A stretch of 20,000 nucleotides of DNA, from assembly GCA_001275005.1 (NCBI GenBank), contig JWZX01003401.1, positions 49,313 to 69,312 of the forward strand. Direction: 5' to 3'. A program made the position numbers and the translations under genes. The stretch is from Chrysochromulina tobinii. Taxonomy: Eukaryota. Of this stretch, positions 186 to 20,000 are shown piece by piece. The notes beneath the pieces were generated by a model. The model worked only from the letters and a program-made list of their open reading frames with translations. It made no database searches and had not been told where the DNA came from. Positions within the stretch are counted from its first letter, which is position 1. Every line of letters begins with the position of its first letter.

Positions 186-1379
186 ATGGGTTGCGGAGGT
201 TCGAGGCCACTGTCGGCCGCGGAGCACCGCGCCGCGGCACTTAAGGCAGCCATGAAGAAGGCGGAGAAGGACCAGAACGCTCGCCTCGATCGCCGTGAGA
301 GCTTGGCCGTAGTCGTTGACATTGAGGACGAAGCTGAGAAACATGCCGGTACCGTCCGGCTGGACGGCGTCATATTTACCGATCACTACCGGGTCATCGA
401 CAAGCTCGGTGAGGGCGCATTTGGGGTCGTCTCAAAGGTACAAAAAGTCACGGATGGCAAGGAATACGCGGCCAAGGAAGTGCTCCGTTCGCGGTGCCAG
501 CACGCCCAGCAGTGGAAAGCGTCTGTGGACGAGATGACTCTGTGGTCGATTATCAGCTCGCCATACCATCCATCCATACTGCAGCTCATCGAGGTCGTCT
601 ACTTGGAAGATGTGAGCTTTCATTTGGTGACGGAGGTCATGAAGGATGACCTGGCCGGCGCCTTCGGTCATTTCGAGATGTCCGAGCAGAACGCGCGAAT
701 GATCACCGTGCAGCTCGCCGCTGCCATCGCGCACTTGCACAAGAATCACTCGATGGCGCATCGCGACATCAAGCCCGAAAACGTCCTGTGCCGCCGACGC
801 CACAACCCGATGCTGGTCGGAAGCCTCAAGCTCGCCGATTTCGGCTTCTGTGCGAAATTCAGTGGAGGGCCCAAAGAGCCTTGCTTCTCCCTTTATGCTG
901 GCTCGGTCGACTACTTCGCGCCCGAGCTCGCGCAGATCGTGCGCGCGGTCAGAAAGAGGCAGTCACAGCAGGGCATGAAGTACGGCGCGGGGGTGGATTG
1001 CTACGCACTCGGCTGCGTGGTGTTCGAGATGTTTAATGGCTCGACACCGCATTACTTTCCCGATGAGAACAAGCAGATCGAGAAAATCATCAAGGGTGGC
1101 CTGGCCTACCCGAAGGATTCGTTTGGTATGGTGAGCTCGACCGGAATGGACTTTATGAAGCGACTGCTCGAGCCAGATCAGCGGAAGCGGATGACTATCG
1201 AAGAGGCCATGCGCCACAAGTGGCTGCAGTCAGTGCACGATAGCGCGCTGAGCGTGCAGATGGATGAGCCGGCTGATGGGGCGGCTAGGAAGAGCAAATC
1301 TCCAGACGAGCTACTTCGCGCCAAGCGACGCTCCGAGAGGGCGCAGAGTAAGAAAGAGGGGCCTACTTTCGTCGTTTGA
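186..1379 (+). CDS. Ser/Thr protein kinase, CAMK-group-like, with predicted N-myristoylation/palmitoylation start (MGCGGS)
   Basis: The ORF has GEGAFG (Gly loop), YAAK, HRDIKPEN, DFG, YFAPE, DCYALG and the R of subdomain XI. The first ATG at 186 gives MGCGGS. No intron is needed. Confidence 0.93.
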   Translation: MGCGGSRPLSAAEHRAAALKAAMKKAEKDQNARLDRRESLAVVVDIEDEAEKHAGTVRLDGVIFTDHYRVIDKLGEGAFGVVSKVQKVTDGKEYAAKEVLRSRCQHAQQWKASVDEMTLWSIISSPYHPSILQLIEVVYLEDVSFHLVTEVMKDDLAGAFGHFEMSEQNARMITVQLAAAIAHLHKNHSMAHRDIKPENVLCRRRHNPMLVGSLKLADFGFCAKFSGGPKEPCFSLYAGSVDYFAPELAQIVRAVRKRQSQQGMKYGAGVDCYALGCVVFEMFNGSTPHYFPDENKQIEKIIKGGLAYPKDSFGMVSSTGMDFMKRLLEPDQRKRMTIEEAMRHKWLQSVHDSALSVQMDEPADGAARKSKSPDELLRAKRRSERAQSKKEGPTFVV

Positions 1380-1576
1380 TTGAAAGGCCAAGGCCATGTG
1401 GGTGTGCTGTGGGGCGTTGGGTGTGCTGTGAATAGAACCAACTCGTCCGCGCACCCATGCGGCCCGCAGTGCGTAAGATGACTTTAACGGTAATGTCCAC
1501 CCTGATGTCCGAGAAAAGTCCCCCCGGAGGGTTTTGTGAAAAGTGGTTTCGGGTTGCAGCCCTGTCGCCTCCGAAA

Positions 1577-3641
1577 ATGACGGAAGCGGACTCCGGACGA
1601 GCGTCGGAACCGTCCGACGCCTGCGCTCCGATTCCCGCGCCGGGCGCGCCGGCGTCCACCAAATGGACGCCTCCAGCGATTCAGGCGCGAAAGCGAAAGC
1701 TTACAAGGATCTTCTGGCTGCTCGCAACCGTCCAGATTATCATCAACCTGGATGGCGGCGCGGTGCCCGCCGGCCTGCTGCACATCGGCGCGACCTTCGA
1801 CATGGGAACGTCCGAGCTCGGGCTCCTTGCGATGCTTGTCTACCAGGGCGTTGCGCTCGGCTGCCTCACGGTTGGCCCGGCGACGCGCTACATGTCGCCG
1901 CTGCGCTTTACGCAGTTGACGATGGCTCTGAACATTGCATGCACTTGCTTATTCGGAGCGGCTCAGTCGATGGGAATGCTCCTCGCCTTCCGCTTGCTGA
2001 TCGGCTTCCTGCAGGCGATGCCCGCCGTGTACTTCCCCGTGTGGGTCGACGAGTTCGCACCCGCGGATGCTGTGACGTTCTGGATGGCTCTCATAAACGC
2101 GGGAGGACCGCTCGGCATCACCATCGGCTACGTCTTCTCGGGCGCGATGACGAGCGGCGAGCTGGACCCGACCTCGGAGGCCTTCGTCCCGTGCGCCACC
2201 TCCGACGTCAGCTGTGCGTGGCGGGTCCCTTTCTACCTGCAGTCCGGGGCGCTCGTGATGCTCTTCTTCGGCATGCTGCTCATCCCGAAGAGCCTCTTCG
2301 ACCTGGGACAGGACAAGCCGCCTGCCGAGACCAAGGAGCCGGCAAACGCGCCAGTGGCTGCGCCAGGTCAGTCGCCGCGGCGCGAGTCGGCCGGCATGCC
2401 ATCGCCGTCGCCCGACCGATCGCCAGGCAATTCGCCCAAGACAACGCCAGACCTCGCGCCCAAGACAACGCCCATGACAAGCGTTGATCAGTCCGAGGCG
2501 CCCACCTCGTTGTCTGTCGCGGAGGTGGACGAAGAGAGGGGGGACGCGCCCGCCGGGACCACGCCCAAGACAACGCCCAAGAAGCGCAACCTCATCTGTG
2601 AGCTGTTCGGCAACGGCCCGTACATTTTCACCGTCATGGGACTCTCATCGCTCTTCTTCGTCGTCACAGGGGTGCAGGTGTGAATTACCTCGTACATCGT
2701 GGTGTTACGCGCTGCATGCGAGTGCTCACCACGACGCCCTCCTCTCCCCACAGGTGTGGGTGACCTCGTACATCGTGGTCGTCATCGGGAAGAGCCAGGC
2801 GGAGGTCACACCCGCGTTTGGCGTCACCTCCATCACCGCCCCCATCATCGGTGTGATCGCCGGCGGCATCTTCATTGACAAGATTGGCGGCTACAAGGGC
2901 GAGGCGGCGATGGCCCTCACGCTCAAGATTTGCTTCGCCTTCGCGTGCTTGGCGGCAACTTTTGCGATCACCTGCGCGTACGTACCCAAAGCCGTCGCCG
3001 ACCAGGGCGTTAGTTGCATCACAAATACCAGCTCGCCCTTCTACGTGGCGCCCGACGACGCCCGCGCCACAGCCGGCTTCTGGTGGTGCATCGGGCTGAT
3101 CTTTATCACGCTCGTCTTCGGCGGTGCCATCATCCCTGCGGCCATGGGCTGCCTTGTGTCGGCGGTCCCGCCCGACATGCGCAGCGTCGGATCGGCCTTG
3201 TCGATGTTCTGCTTCCAACAGTTTGGGTACGCTTTCTCGCCCCTCGCGTCTGCGCTCATCGGCGACTTGGCCACGTTTAGCCGTGAGGACATCATCGACT
3301 GCCTCGCCCAAACTTGCGCGGGGGGCGTCCAGACAGCTGACTGCCCCTCCAGCGCCGTCATCGATTTCGAGATGAAGAACGCGCAGACGAGGGCATCGCT
3401 CGAGCTGTGCTTCCAAGTAGTAATGCTGTGCGGCTTGCTAGGCGTCGCGTGCTTCTTCGCCTCGTGGCGCTTTGCCGTCGCTCATGCCAATCGTACCAGC
3501 GGAGAGGTACAGACCGCCAAGCCCAAGGTGGCCAACGTCAAGGTGGTGGAGGTGCGCACGGCAGAGGGCGAGATCGATATCTCTGAGATATCGCCGAGGA
3601 TCGATCCTAACGGACTCACTGTCATCGGCGACAAGATCTAG
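1577..3641 (+). CDS. Major facilitator superfamily transporter, Spinster (SPNS)-like; exons ~1577-2677 and 2754-3641
   Basis: Multiple hydrophobic helices and MFS motifs (FRLLIGFLQA, PVWVDEFAP, GGIFIDKIGG, VPPDMRS). Removing the phase-0 intron joins ...VVTGVQ to VWVTSYIVV in frame. The start ATG is uncertain (1577 preferred; upstream in-frame ATGs exist). Confidence 0.87.
2433..2582 (+). repeat. Dispersed coding repeat CGCCCAAGACAACGCC (PKTTP), 3 copies in the MFS central loop
   Basis: Copies at about 2433, 2457 and 2562, translating as SPKTTP, APKTTP and TPKTTPK. Confidence 0.8.
2678..2753 (+). mobile_element. 76-nt GT-AG intron, candidate introner-like insertion with a 29-bp target duplication
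   Basis: CAG|GTGTGA ... GCTCAC ... CCTCCTCTCCCCACAG|GTG. It is required to join the two MFS reading frames. 2675-2703 repeats 2751-2779 (26/29), and core 2713-2737 is shared with the RMND5 intron. The intron call is strong; mobility is inferred. Confidence 0.72.
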
Positions 3642-3731
3642 AGTGATGGAGAATGGTGCATGAAAGGTTTTTAATAGAAACTGAATTAACACCTTTTACT
3701 ATGAGGATTGGAGAATTCTGTACATGTGTCT

Positions 3732-5126
3732 ATGACGGACGGAGGCCGAATGATGATGGACTTGACCACAGCCATTGACACGATCAGCAAAAAGCGCAGG
3801 CTCGATCCGAGTGTGCAGAAGATTGACGAGCTCCTTGAGTTGCTCGAGGGCTGGGAAACACGTGTCCGCGGCGGCTCTGACGAGGCCGTCACCAAAGAGT
3901 TTGCTGCACTGCGCGAGCAGGTCCAGAGGCAGGAGACCAAGCAAGTGATCGCGGCGCACCACAAGGATGTGGTGTCAGCCGCGACGAAGCTGGGTAAGGT
4001 TGCAGATAAGGTCTACCCAAACTTGGAGCATGCAGTGCCACACTGCAGCTTCGCGCCAGAGCTCGTCTACCGAGCCATCTACGAGCATCTTCTCGTCTCG
4101 GGCCGATTCGAGGCGGCGCGCGTCTTCAGCGCCGAGGCGGAGCTAGTTGACCAACACGCGCTCACTGAAGAAATGCAGCTTATGTACGCGGCGTGCCGCG
4201 AGCTCGAGGCGGGAGGGACGGAACTCGTGAGTGCCTGGCTCCAAGAGCACGGCCACGAGCTGCGCGACCATGGCGCCATGCTCGAACTTGAGGTACTCCA
4301 GCTGCGCTTCACGCAGCGCGTGCTGAGCGGCGACACAGCCGGGGCGCTGCAGACGCTCCGCGACTTCTCCACGCGCCAGCTGTTGCGGGCAGGTGCCTCG
4401 GACGACGGCTCGGGCCCTCGACCCGGAGTATGGAGCGCGCCTCGGATGGCTGGAACTAAGGGGGTAGCTCAGACCTACCCCCTTACCGGAACGTCCTTCG
4501 ACGGTGCGCGCTGGCCGGTGCAGTCCTCTCAGCTGACGGCCGAAGCCCGGATGCGCAAGCTCGCGGGTGCGCTCGCGTACGCCCATCAGCCCGCGAGCTC
4601 GCCGTATGCTGAGATGCTCAATGAGCCAGCCCAGCGAGCTCAACTCCGAGATCTCTTCACGAAGGAGTACCTGCTGCGGCTGCGTCGGCCAGCGAGCTCA
4701 TCACTCGAGACGCTAGTGGACGCGGGCACGCTCGCTCTGCCCAAGCTCGCAAAGCTTGCCAGCGTGCTCAAGGACAAGTACGCGCGCATCTGCCTCGAGG
4801 GCGACACGCTGCCCCTCGAGATCGACCTTGGGCCACGCTTTGTACGCCACTCGGTCTTCACGTGCCCTATCTCCAAGGTGCGTTGATTGCCACTGATGAT
4901 CTGCCTTGCATGCAATTGCTCACTACGGCGCTTCAAACCTTTGACGTGCCCTATCTCCAAGGAGGCTGGCACGCCCGACAATCCGCCGATGCTGCTCCTG
5001 TGCGGCCACGTGCTCGGGCTCGCCTCGATCACCAAGCTCGCGCGCGGCTCGCGCTCGGCCCGGTTCAAATGCCCCTACTGCCCTGTCGAGAGCTCGATGG
5101 ACGATGCCAAGGCGCTCGATCTGTGA
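3732..5126 (+). CDS. RMND5: RMND5/GID2-like subunit of the CTLH/GID E3 ubiquitin ligase; exons ~3732-4877 and 4962-5126
   Basis: LisH-like segment (AIYEHLLVSGRFEAARVFSAEA), CTLH/CRA region (LELEVLQLRF; SSLETLVDAGTLALPKL) and, after splicing, the degenerate RING HSVFTCPISKE...NPPMLLLCGHVL...FKCPYCP typical of RMND5/Gid2. The start is among ATGs at 3732-3756. Confidence 0.88.
4434..4512. other. Extended inverted repeat / stem-loop within the RMND5 coding insertion
   Basis: Perfect 11-bp stem TAAGGGGGTAG (4457-4467) / CTACCCCCTTA (4475-4485) with a 7-nt loop. Outer stems: CTGG/CCGG and GGATG/CGTCC (each with one G-U pair), and AGCGCGC (4434-4440) / GCGCGCT (4506-4512). Confidence 0.7.
4878..4961 (+). 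mobile_element. 84-nt GT-AG intron, candidate introner-like insertion with a 19-bp exact target duplication
   Basis: AAG|GTGCGT ... GCTCAC ... CTCCAAG|GAG. It contains an in-frame TGA (4884-4886) and has no AG before 4960-4961. 4860-4878 equals 4944-4962 (ACGTGCCCTATCTCCAAGG). Core 4907-4931 is shared with the MFS intron. Confidence 0.72.
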
Positions 5127-6204: not shown

Positions 6205-6336
6205 GGGTCAAGAAACATTCACAGTGGAAAGTCCCTGTGAATGTGATGGTCCCTCAACACAATCGTGGTGGGTTCCTAGGAGGCCCGCGGACAAGGGTCA
6301 CTGACAGGAAACCGGACCAAACCTAGCTTGAGCGTT

Positions 6337-6395
6337 ACTCACTCACTCTCACTCACTCACTCACGTCACTCACTCACTCACGCGTCACCACTCAC
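6337..6395. repeat. Imperfect (ACTC)n tetranucleotide microsatellite
   Basis: ACTCACTCACTCTCACTCACTCACTCACGTCACTCACTCACTCAC... in the intergenic spacer. Confidence 0.9.
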
Positions 6396-6650: not shown

Positions 6651-8558
6651 CTACGCGGGGTGCCCACCATGATCACTCCTCGCTAACGCTGTTGGAGCAT
6701 CCATCAGCATCACTCCTCTCTGATCGATAATACGCTTGTTCGCAACGCGCACACAGAAGACGGCCGAGGTGGCGCCGATGGCCGCCCCAAAGCCGAGGGC
6801 AAGTAGGGCCACGAAGATCAGCCTGCCTATGTCGTCGCCGGGGGGGGGCGGAGAGACTTCGGGCGGTGTCGAGGGGGGGGGGCTGGGGGGGGCGGGAGGA
6901 TTGACGAGACCGCCGGATTGGGCGTCGGCGTCACCGTGGCCATGGATAGTTGCGTTGTATTGCTCAATGCAGCGCTGCCGCGTCGCCGAGCTGCGCATGA
7001 TCCACGCGCCGTCCTGGTTGGCGTACGGGTCCTCCGCATTGTCGGTTTTGGAACTCGAGCGCGACATGCAGCTCTCGGCATCGAGATTGATGTGAGCGAG
7101 TGACGGGTCGCCATTCGCGCCAGTGCCGTTGGCTGACATGCAACTGGAGCGCGACCAGTTGTACCACGCGTGGCTCTGGTTGACGATCGTGAGCAGACCT
7201 ACGCCGAACGTCGCCTGACGAAACGCCGACCAACTGGGCTGCGACGGGAGCCACGGCATGTAGGCGCCTTCGTAGTTGCCCCCATCGCCTAAGTTGAGGT
7301 AGACGGGGCCGCACTCGTCCACGAGGCCCCGGTAGACGGGGAGGGTGCGCTCATACGCATGCACGTGGCCCGAGAGTACAAGGTCGACTCCCGCCTCGTA
7401 CAGGTCCGCCTCCATGTGCTGCCTCATGAGCTCCGCCTCGCCCTTGTGGCCCGAATTCGTGTTGTACCAAGGCGCGTGCATCATCACGATCACCCACGGC
7501 GTCATGGACCGATCGATGCGCGCGAGGTCGCGGCGCAGCCAGCGGTGCTGAAGCGAGCCGGGCGCCGTCGCCGCGTACGAGCAGAGCGAGATCAGGTGCA
7601 CTGGCCCGACGTCTATTGAGTACCACAAGTTCGTCGGTGAGCCGCTCGCGGTATGGGGCATCGGGTAGCGAGCGTTATACGACACAAAGCCCTCACCGGA
7701 ACCGAGCTCGTGGTTGCCGGCGGTGGTCATCACTGGGACCGCGGCGGCGAGCGGCTCCATCATGCGTCCGTACGTGTCCCAGCGCGGTAGCCAGCCGTCC
7801 GCATAGCTCAGATCTCCCGCGAGGAGGACCACGCCGACCCCGACCGTCTCCGCCCGCCTGCGAAGCAGCTCCACGTTGGCACGAGAAGCGCGCGTCTGGC
7901 CGAGATCGGCGGTGAGGCCCACCGAGAACGGGTAGGTGCCCTCGCCACTCGTAGGATCGGGCGGCATCGTGAACGAATAGTCGCGCGTGTGGCCGGCGAC
8001 GCGGTAGCCGTATGTGCGCCCCGCCAGAAGCCCCGACAGCGTGGCCGTGCAGATGAGAGGCGTTGCGTAGATCATCGCCGGATTCCTGTAGGACCCAAAT
8101 TCGCCCGTTTTCAACGTCGTGGGTTCATAGTAGCTTTTTGACTGTCCAAACGGAAAGATGCTCAGCGCACTCGCCCAGCTGCTGGTGTTCTGCATCTGGA
8201 GGATTGCACGCTCATCCCATGGTGCACCCATACTGGGATGAATGAGTTCACTACCGACGTAGAGCAGCTGGCTGTATGCAGCAGCCGTGCCATTGACTGT
8301 CCTGCTGAACGAGTCGGGGCCCCAATAAACTACTGAAGGCCGAGTCTCATCATCAGCAGTCGCCCACGACACAACCATTTCACCCGGCCCCCCGAATGCG
8401 AGGTGCACCTGCTCCACGCAAAGCCGCTGCTGGTTGGTTAGGTTACAAACTGGCGGCGCGAGTCCATCGTCCGAGTCAGCGCTCAGCAGGCGCGAAGCTG
8501 GCGGCCGTGGAATATCCACCGTGATGGCAACAGCAGCAGCAAAACATGCCCACAGCAT
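6651..8558 (-). CDS. Purple acid phosphatase (metallophosphoesterase) with signal peptide, Pro-rich stalk and C-terminal TM helix
   Basis: All five PAP metal-ligand blocks are present: ADLG, GDLSY, GNHE, VMMH, GHVH. The N-domain has EQVHLAF...MVVSWAT. ATG 8558 gives the hydrophobic leader MLWACFAAAVA. The C-terminus has PPAPPSPPPSTPP followed by LIFVALLALGFGAAIGATSAVFCV. Confidence 0.93.
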   Translation of the reverse strand: MLWACFAAAVAITVDIPRPPASRLLSADSDDGLAPPVCNLTNQQRLCVEQVHLAFGGPGEMVVSWATADDETRPSVVYWGPDSFSRTVNGTAAAYSQLLYVGSELIHPSMGAPWDERAILQMQNTSSWASALSIFPFGQSKSYYEPTTLKTGEFGSYRNPAMIYATPLICTATLSGLLAGRTYGYRVAGHTRDYSFTMPPDPTSGEGTYPFSVGLTADLGQTRASRANVELLRRRAETVGVGVVLLAGDLSYADGWLPRWDTYGRMMEPLAAAVPVMTTAGNHELGSGEGFVSYNARYPMPHTASGSPTNLWYSIDVGPVHLISLCSYAATAPGSLQHRWLRRDLARIDRSMTPWVIVMMHAPWYNTNSGHKGEAELMRQHMEADLYEAGVDLVLSGHVHAYERTLPVYRGLVDECGPVYLNLGDGGNYEGAYMPWLPSQPSWSAFRQATFGVGLLTIVNQSHAWYNWSRSSCMSANGTGANGDPSLAHINLDAESCMSRSSSKTDNAEDPYANQDGAWIMRSSATRQRCIEQYNATIHGHGDADAQSGGLVNPPAPPSPPPSTPPEVSPPPPGDDIGRLIFVALLALGFGAAIGATSAVFCVRVANKRIIDQRGVMLMDAPTALARSDHGGHPA

Positions 8559-10575
8559 TTCCCACCGTCGGCAACACAGAAGATGACTCGTAATCAAGTT
8601 CAGTGGTGCTGCTGCTGCTGTGAAACAAACAAACGACTGTCGCGTCTGTCGTGTTAACGCACAAACGCGCACACTCTCCGGGCCCCCAAGCACGAGGGCC
8701 TCTATCGCAATGGACGGAGGTGTGGCCATTACCCGTTAATCGGCAAGGGGTGGATTCAAAACAACCGGCGCCTTCCTCGACGCGGCGGCGAGATTCCGCG
8801 ATCCAGAGATTGAGGGCCGCAAGATGAAGGAGGTCGCGCGCCTCTTCAAGTGAATGGCTCGCCGCTTCGTTGGTGACACATTGGAGCAGCGCCTTGCCAG
8901 CGGTTTCAGGCTCGAGGGTGGTGCCAGGGCTCCTCGGCTGGCTGAGAACCTCTGACAGATCCGACAGGGCTGGAGCGAGTTTTTGCTCGAGACGGCGCCG
9001 TTGCTCGTCGAGCCTTTCAAGCAGAGGTGGATGGACGCGACTTGACGAAACTTGTCGAGGTGGATGGACGCCGGCCTTCGAACGAACCGGGCTGCCTCCC
9101 AGCCGTGGTATCCCTTCCGGCCCGGCCAGACGAACCGGGCTGCCTCCCAGCCGTGGTATCCCTCCCGGCCTACGAGCGAGCGGCGCCGACCCAGACGCCG
9201 GTCGCGCTCGAAGTCGCTTCTGCCCCTCGTCCGGCTGATGTAACGGCTGATGTAACGGCTGATGTAACGGCTGATGTAACGGCTGATGTAACGGCTGATG
9301 TAACGGCTGATGTAACGGCTGATGTAACGGCTGATGGCCGGCCTCGCCAGCGCTCTCGTCCGAGTCGGAGTCCGTCGCCGAGTCGGCGCCTGCCGCCGAG
9401 TATGCGCCTGCCGCCGAGCCGCAGTCTATGGAGCCCGCAAGGGCGCCTGAATCGGCGCCGAGCCGCAGTCTATGCAACCATGACATAGAGCGGCGAGCTT
9501 GAACGGACGCATGGAGCTCGCCACTAGAGCGCTGCTGCGTCAGCTCGTGCTTAGTCGCCGTTCGCTCTGCATTGTTCTTGAAGAGCAGGGCGATCTTGAT
9601 CCCTGCGCTGCGCTGCTGAGCTGTACTGCAAGTAGATCGCGAGATGGGAGGGGTTTCGTCACGTCGGGTTTCGTCACGTCGGAGGCAGCTGCATGTGGAT
9701 GGCGAGATGGCACTTGATGAGGTTGGAGCCGCAGGACCTGCACGTGGAACTCCAAAACCATCGCCCGGTTCGGGATGACGCTCGTCTATGTCGTCCTCGC
9801 CGTGCCCCCCAACTTCATCGTCCTCCCCTCTACCTCCTCGTCCCCGCCCCTGCTCTCGGCATTTCTCATCGGCATCGACAGCACCCCCCGTGAGGAGAAG
9901 GCTCGGTGGTGCAGGGGCGCTGTGGTTTGCCAGCTCGGCATAGCTGCGCTGCAAAGGCAAGTGCCCGCGCTGAGCATGCGCATGGCGCTGAAGGCAATCG
10001 TAGGCGATTCTGCGAGAGGCGATCATCGGAGCCGACAACGGGCGCGGAATAGACCGAGAGCGCGATGCCAATGGATACGTAGCCTGAGGAGGGGCGGCGA
10101 CGAGAGCGGCAACAATGGCCCGTGCCTGGGTGGAGGCGGCTGTTGTTGCTGCCAATTCTGGAACTCGAGATGGAAGTGCGCTGCTGATCACCGGCGAGGT
10201 CAAGTGGACCACCTCGCCATTCGGAGCATGTGACGAGTCGCTGTACACGCGGACTTCACCTTGGAAACTGAGCCCCGACTTGCTAGGCCGCCACCCAAAT
10301 GCTCGAGGGTCGGCATTCGAACGCCAGGGTTTGCGTGTCCGAAAGGGCTGGGGCAGGATCAATGATGGCTTCGGCTTATGAATATGCGAGTTGCTGATTG
10401 AGAGCGTTTGCTGTACTCGCGCAGCTGATTGATCACTTGGTTGCAGGCCATCGAGTGAGACAGCGGTTGCCTTGGAGCTGGTGACGCGGCGTGATGGTCG
10501 CGAGTCGGAGCTGGCCCGTCGCGATAAAGTGTCGCCGAGCTGTCGATGCAGCGGCCCTTCACTGTGCGGGTTCAT
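8476..10575 (-). CDS. Hypothetical low-complexity protein (one or possibly two genes); boundaries uncertain
   Basis: A stop-free frame of more than 2 kb, first ATG at 10575. Its internal duplications mostly have periods that are multiples of 3. A helical-looking C-terminal block is present (LERLDEQRRRLEQKL...EEARDLLHLAALNLWIAE). No domain recognised; the 3' end overlaps the PAP start. Confidence 0.4.
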   Translation of the reverse strand: MNPHSEGPLHRQLGDTLSRRASSDSRPSRRVTSSKATAVSLDGLQPSDQSAARVQQTLSISNSHIHKPKPSLILPQPFRTRKPWRSNADPRAFGWRPSKSGLSFQGEVRVYSDSSHAPNGEVVHLTSPVISSALPSRVPELAATTAASTQARAIVAALVAAPPQATYPLASRSRSIPRPLSAPMIASRRIAYDCLQRHAHAQRGHLPLQRSYAELANHSAPAPPSLLLTGGAVDADEKCREQGRGRGGRGEDDEVGGHGEDDIDERHPEPGDGFGVPRAGPAAPTSSSAISPSTCSCLRRDETRRDETPPISRSTCSTAQQRSAGIKIALLFKNNAERTATKHELTQQRSSGELHASVQARRSMSWLHRLRLGADSGALAGSIDCGSAAGAYSAAGADSATDSDSDESAGEAGHQPLHQPLHQPLHQPLHQPLHQPLHQPLHQPLHQPDEGQKRLRARPASGSAPLARRPGGIPRLGGSPVRLAGPEGIPRLGGSPVRSKAGVHPPRQVSSSRVHPPLLERLDEQRRRLEQKLAPALSDLSEVLSQPRSPGTTLEPETAGKALLQCVTNEAASHSLEEARDLLHLAALNLWIAESRRRVEEGAGCFESTPCRLTGNGHTSVHCDRGPRAWGPGECARLCVNTTDATVVCLFHSSSSTTELDYESSSVLPTVGNAVGMFCCCCCHHGGYSTAASFAPAER
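9082..9170. repeat. Direct duplication, 41-bp copies at period 48
   Basis: ACGAACCGGGCTGCCTCCCAGCCGTGGTATCCCT(T/C)CCGGCC at 9082 and 9130; encodes GIPRLGGSPVR twice on the - strand. Confidence 0.9.
9232..9336. repeat. Perfect 12-bp minisatellite (CGGCTGATGTAA) x8.75
   Basis: Units start at 9232, 9244, ... 9328; encodes (HQPL)8HQP on the - strand. Confidence 0.97.
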
Positions 10576-16700: not shown

Positions 16701-18511
16701 GGCAGAATACAGCTGCCCTCGTCGTACGTGCGAATGGCGTGGAGATGACCGCCTGATCGCCTCAGAAAGCGCGACATCGAATTCACTGAGGGCCGGCGCA
16801 CGCGCGAGCTTGGCTGGCTCACATTCACGCTGTTCGGATTGCCCTCCAGCAGGCCAGATTCGACGACCATCCCGCGGACGAGTAGCAACGCGTTCGTGCA
16901 TATCAGTGGCGTCATCGTGGCGGTACCATCCTCGGCGATGGACGAGCACTTGATCAAGTACTCATCCTTTGTGTAGAGCACGGGGGAGAGCAGCTCGGCG
17001 AGGGCGGAAATCGTGTCAGGGTCCGACCGCGCGAACGCGGGGATGGAACGCAGCAGCTTGTGATTGAGTGCAAAGATCACTTCAATCCGGAGGGACGAAG
17101 GCAGCCCCGCAAAGAAGGTGCTCTCGTTGGCGCCACGCAGATAGAGCCATTGGTACTGCAGGTACTCTCGGAGACGCCGGGCGAGCTCGGGGGGGATCTT
17201 GCGCTTCCTTATAAAGGCATCTGTACGCTCGACACGTGCCTGCCACGTCTCCTTCATCTTGTCAGAACGCATCAGCTCTGCCATCAACAACCCGACCGCG
17301 CCGGACGCCGTGAACGTGCTAATAACCATGACAGCTATGGTGAAGACCATCTCCTCCCATTTGGTGGGCACGATGTCGCCCAGGCCGACGGTGGTCATCG
17401 TGCCACACGCCCAGTAGTACGCGCGTGCATAGTGTAGCCAGTACTCTGCGGCCACCGAGAAATCGAACGCAAGCAGGCGAGGTGAGCTGCCGCAACGCGT
17501 GGTCGGCACCCACCCGGCTGCTGCGCACCGGTGGGGCGCGCGGCGAGGGGGCTCACTTCCTGCCAGCCCGACGTGTCGCCGGACCAGGTGCCCACCGCCT
17601 GCCATCCGCAAGCAACCAGATGCACGAGCAGGACATAGACGGGAACGTAGGAGGATAGCCGCGCCCAGCCAACCGTGAATCCCGCCTTGTGCCGCATACA
17701 CCAATATGCCGCGCGAATTGCATCCGGGAGGTGCATGAGGCGCAAGAGGCGCAGAAGCGAGACGGTCGTCCATGTGCGGAGCGACGCGTTGCCGAGCAGA
17801 ACAAATAGATCGACGGGCACCCATGCAACTAACCGGCTTAGAACCTTGAGGATGGCCAGACAAAGGCGCAGGTTGTGCGAGCACTTGGCATCTTCGTCAT
17901 CATCGTTGCCCTCGCCCGCTTCAAGGCGGTGCTCGTTGAGCTCTGACGGTGAACGCGTCACCTCCGGAGACTGAGTCACGCGCCTGCGCGCTTGGTTGCG
18001 CACCAGACGAGTCGAGCGGAGTACTAGGAATGCGACGTCCACGAAGTAGAGAGAGACGCAGTAGCCAGCAAGCTCAGGATACTGCAATGCTGGCTGGTCG
18101 GTGTATTGATCCCAGCCAATTGACGTGAAGGCCGAGCGGAACGGAAGCAGGACAGCGTGCACCATGATCAGGCTGCCGCTAATCAAGTGAAACAAGGTTT
18201 CGGTCCAATTGAGCGCTGCGACGTTCTGTGCTTTGAGCTCCTCTTGTTGCGATGCTGCTGGCCTCTTGTTGCGGTCCAGCATAAAGGACGCGACCGAACG
18301 CCATTGTGACTTTCGCCCAGGTCCCTTCATCCTGAGGCAGCCGCAGCGGCTCTTCTTCTAAGGCGTAGTGGAGATGAGCACAACCTCTGGGACGAGGTCG
18401 CAGGATCGCTCCACGCACTCCCAAGAGGCGGGACGCGAGGCGGGTTACGACTCTTGACGCCTTCGACCAGCCAGGAGTCAGGGTAAGTTTTTCCAGCACA
18501 AGTTTTTCCAT
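10786..18511 (-). CDS. Four-repeat cyclic-nucleotide-binding-domain cation/K+ channel (CNGK / tetra-KCNH-like), ~2,500 aa; predicted exons 18511-18419, 18357-17529, 17445-10786 with a frameshift near 11125
   Basis: Four tandem units, each with an S4-like segment, HxxACxW S5, pore loop (TTVGLGD, STMGLGD, VVVPIGD, STVGLGD), P-x-x-x-x-E, S6, C-linker (LP..L) and CNBD. The first exon is tentative; the alternative start is ATG 18330. Confidence 0.88.
17446..17528 (-). other. 83-nt GT-AG intron (phase 1) in channel repeat 1
   Basis: ACCG|GTGCGC ... GCTCAC ... CCGCAG|AGTAC joins frame 17395-18330 to frame 10925-17884 as ...EVSPLAARPTEYWLHYARAYYW. Confidence 0.75.
18358..18418 (-). other. Putative 61-nt GT-AG intron (phase 0) near the channel 5' end
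   Basis: GGA|GTGCGT ... GTGCTCATCTCCACTACGCCTTAG|AAG joins MEKLVLEK...RLLG in frame to KKSRCGCLRMKGP and removes the in-frame TAG. Confidence 0.55.
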
Positions 18512-18810: not shown

Positions 18811-20000
18811 TCACTTGAGCAGCATGGGCGCTGAGAACTTAGCAACGCGCTCCACCTCCTCATGGCGCAGAAGCTGCGCGGCAGGCGTCCCTAGGATGGT
18901 CTCCCCGATGATGAGCGAAGAGCGCTCGAGCTTCTCGATTGGGTTGGCATTGCGCAGGACGACTGTGTCGATGAGCGAATCGTCGAAGCAGTGCGTCGTG
19001 CACAGCACCACGTGAAGCGACGCGCAATCAATCGGGAGAGTGCCGGAGCGCGAAAGGCCGTCGAGCAAGTCGAAGGCGGCGGCTTTCCCACTCTTCTGCT
19101 CCGCCTCACCGAGCGTGCTGTTCGTTGGTTTGGCCAGAAGCGCCTTTTGCGAGCGCTTCTGCCAGATCGGGCCCACCTTGATCGTTGTTGCGCGCAGCGC
19201 ACCATCGACATCATGTTCCTCGAAGCGCGCGTCGAGTTCCGCAGGAACTTTGGTGAAATCGACTGCACCACCTTCGGCGCCTCCGCCGGCCTCCGGCGCC
19301 AGGGGAGCCTCTTTGGGCTCAAGCTTGGCTGTGGGAAGCTTGGCTGGCGCAGACGACGTACTCTGCGGCACGGATGCTGCTGAATCACAGCTCGCTGAAT
19401 CGTAGCTCTTGAGATTCGCCCGCGGCGGAGGCGCTCCGAACCCCCCCCCGACCGGGGGGGGGATATCCCCCCCCGGCGGGGGCTCCGAAGGCTGCGGGTG
19501 CGGCGCCAAAGCAGGCAGCGCCGCCGCCAAAGGCCATCGGCGCGCTGCATGGCATGCTCATGCAGCATGGCATAGCCTGGGGGCGCGGTGGTGCGGGGGG
19601 TGGTGCACATGCCATGCGGCGCGCTACCGAGTGGCTGCGCACTACCGAGTCATCAGAGTATTCCTCCTCCGAATGGGCCACCATGTGGCGAGGGTGAGCA
19701 TATTCAAAGGCCTGCTTCTCCGCTGCCACCTCCGCCTTCTTGGCCTCGTCGATCGTCGTCTTGATCGCCGCCACGTGTGCCTTGACCGCCGTGAGCTTCT
19801 CGGCGGCCGGGGCGTTCGCGTCGCCGTCGTACGACAGCAGATCGGACGGAATCTGATAGTCAATAAAGAGTTCGAGGAGGGTCTCGGTGAGCGCGGTCTC
19901 CTTGACGAGTGAATCCGGTGGCAGTCGGAGCAGCCTCTCGAGCTGCGGCTTGAGCTGGAGGACGAGCAGCCCGAAGACAGTCCCCTCAAGCTGCATCGAA
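18811..20000 (-). CDS. 3' part of a hypothetical protein gene (5' end outside the window), apparent 1-bp frameshift at 19454-19462
   Basis: Two overlapping GC3-biased frames with globular-looking blocks (LKPQLERLL...YQIPSDLLSY; AFDLLDGLSRSG...LHVVLCTTHCFD...NPIEKLERS). They join as GGGYPPPVGGGFGAPPP if one base is removed from a homopolymer. Function not recognised. Confidence 0.7.

Follow-up and report, generated by a model that had tools for sequence, protein, structure and literature searches.

Recent introns of Chrysochromulina are likely built from a host duplication and a splice-signal module copied from a neighbouring intron

Our analysis indicates that many recent introns of Chrysochromulina likely consist of a duplication of host sequence joined to a splice-signal module that was copied from a neighbouring intron. 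The intron family concerned is real, abundant, polymorphic and spliced where this was checked. The origin of new spliceosomal introns is a long-standing question, for which the current answer is mostly transposons. Module copying, if it holds, would allow new introns to spread by themselves, in a manner that genome surveys have so far missed; it modifies intron-gain routes already known, and there is a reasonable likelihood that it represents a distinct self-propagating mechanism.

Materials and Methods

The window, i.e., the whole stretch of DNA analysed, comprises 20,000 nucleotides of Chrysochromulina tobinii. It was present in 19 public runs, six of them RNA, two runs (X20 and X21) containing almost none of its words, and the RNA check covered the window's two introns. 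Family copies were sampled by a metagenome scan, in which 3 of 64 parts gave 135 loci; the number of matching stretches was estimated at about 2,600, over assemblies that are redundant. The loci analysed numbered 132 (765 kb), or 118 (667 kb) once overlaps were removed, 75 being classed as culture-type by contig name and the other 43 not being assigned to the culture. Five cross-group locus pairs (culture-type versus other) were 96-99% identical. Junction repeats were compared with a set composed of random positions and swapped flanks.

Results

The sequence-only reading had noticed a common core in two introns of the window, hosted by an MFS transporter gene and an RMND5/Gid2-like gene, respectively. 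The same figure was obtained here, 21 of 25 positions being identical between 2713-2737 and 4907-4931. When the branch motif TGCTCAC was forced, none of 3000 shuffles reached 21 matches (maximum 19), and the next-best matches to the core within the window were 18/25 and 16/25. The corresponding features are as follows.

1577..3641, + strand: MFS transporter gene, exon 1 1577-2677, exon 2 2754-3641, host of intron 1
2678..2753, + strand: intron 1, 76 nt, GT..AG, phase 0, type B
2675..2703, + strand: left copy of the intron 1 duplication, source of the 5' splice site, with three later substitutions
2751..2779, + strand: right copy of the intron 1 duplication, acceptor CAG and start of exon 2
2714..2737, + strand: intron 1 core, 24 nt, containing the TGCTCAC branch motif
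2738..2753, + strand: intron 1 pyrimidine tract and acceptor CCCACAG, travelling with the core
3732..5126, + strand: RMND5/Gid2-like gene, exon 1 3732-4877, exon 2 4962-5126, host of intron 2
4878..4961, + strand: intron 2, 84 nt, phase 0, type A
4860..4878, + strand: left copy of the intron 2 duplication, 19 nt, end of exon 1
4944..4962, + strand: right copy of the intron 2 duplication, 19 nt, source of the 3' splice site
4876..4907, + strand: 5' module of intron 2, donor site and TGATTGCCACTGATGA-type decamers, repeated and common to other type A introns
4908..4931, + strand: intron 2 core, 24 nt, two differences from the commonest form

Intron 1 is composed, in order, of the host duplication, a linker, the core, a pyrimidine tract and CAG. 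Its host was identified by the Pfam MFS_1 match of exon 1 (E 7.5e-17), homologues being also found, and the MFS frame is open over 662 codons once the intron is removed by coordinates; left unspliced, it brings a stop codon into this frame at 2681-2683. Excision of intron 1 from the mRNA has indirect RNA support. RNA contigs stop at 2682 in three of four runs and restart at 2751 in three of four, one contig extending to 2703 with the three exon 2 letters, and this fork at 2682 and merge at 2751 is the pattern predicted for a mixture of spliced and unspliced molecules; no direct splice joint appeared among the RNA contigs listed for the four runs. The intron is common to the closest MFS cluster, from related strains, and missing from the ORFs of relatives that are 81-88% identical. 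These read-through ORFs lie on contigs of 8-14.7 kb.

In intron 2, the order is 5' module, core, linker and host duplication with its terminal AG. The RMND5/Gid2-like product carries a CTLH domain (Pfam), and its protein cluster includes KOO20929.1 (rmnd5a, C. tobinii), a sister cluster including a C. parva model. Splicing was supported in three of four RNA runs, directly in X19, where a 1427-nt contig skips exactly 84 nt (GT..AG), and in X15 and X17 by the spliced continuation appearing as a loose end at 4878. Summed RNA contig depth reached 250-630 at 4876-4930, a segment which is itself repeated family sequence (20 similar copies of the 5' module among those listed), versus 3-11 on the exons. 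Splicing had been expected to restore the coding sequence without a scar. The X19 joint is indeed scarless, but two database proteins (P0001 and P0016) lack the Glu that follows the junction, consistent with usage of the next AG, so that the splicing of intron 2 is not always scarless.

Most of the listed RMND5 relatives read through the site without any insert, including ORFs on contigs of 9-20 kb. Given the contig sizes, and because ORFs from these sources also run into introns, they are probably genomic and unspliced. Six listed relatives terminate inside the intron 2 of the window. Four others carry a different insertion of 78 nt, composed of an 11-residue duplication and the core in frame, which breaks a few bases from the intron 2 break; empty alleles occur there too, and this configuration supports a template-switch reading. 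Both window introns are missing from ORFs of close relatives, contrary to the conserved intron positions that would have spoken against the family.

Direct repeats bracketing each intron, at an offset equal to intron length, had also been described. The offsets of 76 and 84 nt were found again, as was the exact 19-nt repeat of intron 2 (4860-4878 / 4944-4962), but the 29-nt repeat of intron 1 (2675-2703 / 2751-2779) is identical at 26 of 29 positions only. In the read-through ORFs of other strains, the left copy is free of the three mismatches, which therefore arose later, within intron 1's copy.

The core, defined as the 24-mer GCATGCAAGTGCTCACCACGGCGC, occurred in 297 distinct copies at ≤4 mismatches (0.76 Mb) and in none of the shuffled loci, so that the proposed mobile-intron family extends well beyond its two window members. 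Copies are clustered, their density falling from 0.56 per kb within 1 kb of another copy to 0.084 at 6-10 kb. Extrapolation from the flanks of seeded loci, which is biased upward, gives at most ~5,000 copies per 59 Mb, and ~400-800 for the exact pattern. According to the accessible text of PMC4580454, the C. tobinii genome has 16,777 genes, with about one intron each. No Rfam match was obtained in the window at the gathering threshold. A source in viruses was not supported, the single match in viral contigs having a host-like build and its longest ORF no Pfam domain.

A host duplication flanked 213 of 284 cores, versus 26/840 swapped flanks and 78/800 random positions, which bears out the long, variable-length duplications inferred from the window. 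Their median length was 28 nt, with 95% identity, a 5-95% range of 16-46 nt and continuous lengths, unlike the fixed target-site duplication (TSD) left by a transposase. Of the 292 non-redundant copies, 133 belonged to type B, in which a duplication beginning with GT or GC is followed by the core, the tract and AG; the median type B length was 79 nt, and lengths were evenly distributed modulo 3. Another 45 had a tract and no detected duplication, and 114 were others. Among these 114, type A was represented by 17 copies with the intron 2 5' module, a duplication being found in 12; the remainder includes bare cores as well as tandem arrays. CCCACAG was by far the most frequent tract end in the 133 type B copies.

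The division of labour between the two parts differs from that first proposed, in which the module supplied the branch point only and the duplications both splice sites: the module also carries one splice site. In the common type, exemplified by intron 1, it brings the branch point and the 3' splice site, the duplication giving only the 5' site; in the rarer type, exemplified by intron 2, it brings the 5' splice site and the branch point, the duplication giving only the 3' site. The target sites of type B are cryptic donors, G|GTRCG, that existed beforehand and occur in both duplication copies, with a G at -1 in 96 of 119 cases versus a background of 27%; this motif could reflect targeting or selection. 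Type B loci encode diverse genes, with at least four similar introns in non-paralogous genes, in line with the definition of introners.

The whole 24-nt core is nearly always kept. Its 3' end is nearly fixed (8/264 truncated), its 5' end variable (90/348 truncated), and the acceptor tract was present in only 9 of 87 5'-truncated copies. Alongside this polarity, the family displays two different 3' ends and a hypervariable tract. Random switching would be expected to erode the core, and the scarcity of the tract among truncated copies hints at a dedicated cis signal, which counts against template switching. A weak hairpin is predicted in the core (-4.3 kcal/mol as RNA, computed without a shuffle control), and was not counted as evidence. 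Likewise, the 11 cores that are truncated, lack a tract and have a duplication all show periods of 3n, an observation which was not counted since coding repeats give the same result.

A search for the same build, made independently of the core, returned 366 candidates versus one in shuffled sequence. They were distributed between the core family (121), a second family (106), others (64), wrong-strand views (55) and long ones (20). The second family is composed of CTGATGACCT-type decamers within the same build, 31 members ending in CTCCCTCATCAG. Two unrelated module families behave alike, which was counted for template switching and against a transposon. The idea that the core is simply the extended branch consensus of old introns was ruled out by these 106 same-build candidates devoid of core and by the polymorphic sites. 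One core-less candidate intron on the minus strand of the window, with an ambiguous acceptor, showed no junction repeat.

Recent gain was observed at the DNA level, one locus (L010) being empty at the site where another (L102) holds an 81-nt core intron. The L102 module is 53/53 identical to an intron of the same gene that lies 476 bp downstream, an identity found at no further site in the 133 loci. In a second case, the copy at L060:12534 includes letters that are host sequence at L060:10000, where they form part of the duplication in a separate gene further upstream; the join lies at five shared letters. Donors can therefore lie both upstream and downstream and act across a gene boundary.

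Statistical comparison of neighbours gave a similar picture. Non-consensus core variants were shared by 47 of 242 same-locus pairs, versus 20.1 +/- 4.3 after permutation, in a test that was run after a null test of whole-core similarity (no excess for near versus far pairs, that test being biased by seed hits). In the 75 culture-type loci, sharing concerned 42 of 213 pairs versus 18.2 permuted. Variant sharing peaked at 1-4 kb, and beyond 4 kb it was no longer significant. Tracts were distinct in 163 of 178 cases, yet more alike within a locus (p 4e-7), and upstream flanks of at least 8 nt were common to 5/229 near pairs versus 40/23,891 far pairs. On this evidence, the donors are more likely to be neighbouring introns than the discrete mobile module that had been envisaged, with a master copy. 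Several observations count against the neighbour-donor reading: polarised donor-recipient cases are only two, and the two window introns share no core variant with each other. A systematic donor search returned one clean case, and a second one that reduces to the 5' flank of the family itself. Microhomology at exon starts was not longer between neighbours (2.72 versus 2.62 nt, p 0.27).

Discussion

We consider it somewhat probable that the module is copied from a nearby intron by polymerase template switching on DNA, during the repair of a staggered break or a stalled fork. Repair synthesis would first copy about 15-45 nt of the target, and the polymerase would then switch to an intron no more than a few kb away, either in that gene or in the one next to it. 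From this donor it would copy the core, with or without the accompanying tract and AG or the accompanying 5' module, and synthesis would finally return to the target at the point where copying had begun. Exon copies would persist in type B if a cryptic G|GTRCG donor is present in the duplicated end, in type A if this end offers an AG, and also when they are in frame. Each new intron would itself become a donor, so that the family would spread without a master element. Pol-theta-type end-joining or break-induced replication may offer an analogue of such template switching. This mechanism is favoured by donors located on either side and across a gene boundary, by variable ends and by hitch-hiking host fragments. 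Two features count against it: few junctions overlap into the core, and copies other than type B are mostly in sense orientation relative to nearby introns (16/19).

The sequence-only reading had preferred insertion resembling target-primed reverse transcription (TPRT) or break repair to cut-and-paste transposition. Break repair is indeed favoured and a transposon fits poorly, but an RNA-templated, TPRT-like route is still a live rival, albeit one that we regard as unlikely. Here, a reverse transcriptase (from a LINE, a Penelope-like element or a repair polymerase) acting at a staggered nick would copy the 3' part of an intron from nearby nascent or circular intron RNA. Such a template explains the polarity of the core (3' end fixed, 5' end variable) and the sense orientation of copies better than DNA template switching does, and it agrees with the long, variable duplications, with the precise CAG|GT junction at the donor-like target G|GTRCG and with the downstream donor of L102 in the same gene. 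It is at odds with the L060 donor, which lies in a different, upstream gene, and with type A and bare copies, which end just past the core and not where the 3' end of an RNA would lie; neighbours on opposite strands likewise have variants in common (9/51 versus 4.3, p 0.034, in four loci only). A search for longer autonomous elements had been suggested. In the small portion examined, about 1% of the genome and hence a weak argument, no YxDD-type motif was found in 368 long ORFs, and Pfam revealed neither a reverse transcriptase nor a transposase domain in the 53 of these that were scanned.

It is improbable that the family is a classical non-autonomous transposon (introner) hopping locally with an unseen transposase. 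The sharply conserved 24-nt core, the high copy number and the polymorphic insertions would suit it, as would the introner families reported, in the accessible part of the literature, for other Chrysochromulina metagenome-assembled genomes (MAGs). Its poor fit arises from duplications of 8-50 nt instead of a fixed length and from two unrelated modules behaving alike. Variable ends with hitch-hiking host fragments and the 163 unique tracts out of 178 also speak against it, as does the lack of terminal inverted repeats (TIRs), which, as first reported, were seen neither in the window introns (no inverted pair at either of them among the 25 longest of 355) nor in the listed family copies. Still less probable is a two-step history, in which tandem exon duplication would create a weak intron and gene conversion from a neighbour would then add the module. 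Tandem re-duplication is common (L025 versus L064, 94 nt; arrays) and tandem duplication is an established source of introns in the accessible text of PMC3443670, but the filled L102 is set apart from the empty L010 by the duplication, which is near-perfect, and at once by the 53/53 module, and a duplication of 16-46 nt is by itself shorter than these introns (median 79 nt).

Taken further, template switching on DNA may amount to an autocatalytic, transposase-free intron factory in Chrysochromulina, in which any intron would template a new one nearby via repair synthesis, the splice site still lacking would come from a long host duplication, and a considerable fraction of all introns in the genome would be made in this way (of the order of 1,000-5,000 core copies by upper-biased extrapolation, with a second family of similar size). 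We put this forward tentatively, as a serious possibility. A cultured alga shows ongoing intron gain with a readable donor, recipient and empty site, and the route proposed unites three models that have been treated separately, namely duplication, break repair and intron transposition. A new search rule is suggested, i.e., one conserved intron end together with a long exon repeat. If the reading is true, such gain escapes introner screens that work end to end and may be overlooked in other eukaryotes.

Comparison with Known Systems

No published description of this core intron family was found in the accessible literature. In the accessible text of Gozashti 2022 (PMC9860276), introners are defined by similarity that reaches both intron boundaries, and the one Chrysochromulina MAG family figured there has TSDs of 4 bp, lacks TIRs and carries its 5' site. 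The family described here resembles introners, as far as that source documents them, in its many similar new introns, in one site being carried and the other co-opted from a duplication, and in the lack of TIRs noted for the figured family. As in introners, presence and absence alternate among close relatives (L010/L102 in DNA, RMND5 and MFS in read-through ORFs), and splicing in mRNA is seen directly for intron 2 and indirectly for intron 1. Unlike the figured 4-bp TSD, a duplication of ~16-46 nt forms one whole intron end here; moreover, ends are variable and donors are neighbours. Similarity does not reach both boundaries, since one end of the core introns is a site-specific host duplication. 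This accounts for a false negative of a large introner screen: in the accessible part of Gozashti 2025, covering 8,716 genomes, C. tobinii was scored with 0 introner families. TIRs with a fixed short TSD, which characterise TIR transposons and MITEs, were not found in the family.

A closer parallel to the repeats is provided by Daphnia pulex, where intron gain by double-strand-break repair leaves terminal repeats of 4-12 bp (Li et al., 2014, PMC4202315, accessible text). Both systems show staggered-break repeats at intron ends, parallel gains near the same site and population polymorphism, and, as in Daphnia, a direct repeat of the adjacent exon end lies at the far end of the new intron. The Daphnia repeats are shorter, and the accessible text of that report describes no shared module family or self-propagation. 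The tandem genomic duplication model, as presented in the portion of PMC3443670 available, likewise has a duplicated exon giving a splice site and the coding sequence restored; unlike in that model, the duplication gives one site here, the branch point and second site coming from another intron. Local intron copying is also shared with Oikopleura, for which the accessible text of PMC3879977 cites four near-identical intron pairs and copying within the same gene, and with Micromonas, for which an R-loop reverse-splicing model predicts nearby insertions of whole introns (PMC3879977 and PMC4540971, in the parts accessible). In contrast to the clean whole-intron insertion set out in these sources, the Chrysochromulina introns involve a partial intron and a long duplication, sometimes across genes.

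Other alleles at the two intron sites

At the RMND5 site, window positions 4845-4877 are duplicated in other strains by a second insertion of the core (the 24-nt motif carrying the TGCTCAC branch motif), different from the window's intron in this gene. One core variant is common to both insertions, and the same peptide is obtained from 16 of the 292 core copies; this sharing may reflect either a common donor or chance. The acceptor of the window's RMND5 intron is a tandem AAG/GAG (4959-4964), at which, in the protein comparison, Glu was absent from two database proteins, P0001 and P0016. In this same region, the NCBI rmnd5a model of C. tobinii, KOO20929.1, skips 25 residues and is probably mis-spliced. 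In the MFS gene, the homologue P0054 represents a different allele, which is divergent downstream of VWVISYI, terminates in core-like letters and is possibly another insertion at this site.

Core copies in metagenome loci

At L025:1543-1660, contig comparison revealed a tandem re-duplication (94 nt) of an entire core intron that is present once in L064. The sole core match in viral contigs, L133:3001-3024, displays a host-like duplication and pyrimidine tract. The longest ORF of this contig had no Pfam match, and L133 may be algal DNA.

Other features of the window

17444-17556, minus strand: candidate intron in a large channel-like gene, devoid of core and junction repeat
8666-8727: distinct repeated element close to the beginning of a predicted phosphatase-like ORF (6651-8729, minus strand)
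9232-9327 and 6333-6394: 12-nt tandem array and ACTC-type microsatellite

The channel-like gene segment is likely an intron; no RNA joint was found at this position. Within the repeated element, summed RNA contig depth reached 57-121 at 8697, compared with bin means of about 3-8, and loose ends were numerous. One base was absent at 19452 in all four RNA runs, which suggests an assembly error that splits the gene lying on the minus strand at the end of the window.

A second intron module family

A second family of intron modules, composed of CTGATGACCT/CTGATTGCCT decamers ending in CTCCCTCATCAG, was present in L011, L033, L045, L062 and other loci. It shares with the core family the construction by duplication, at a similar density.
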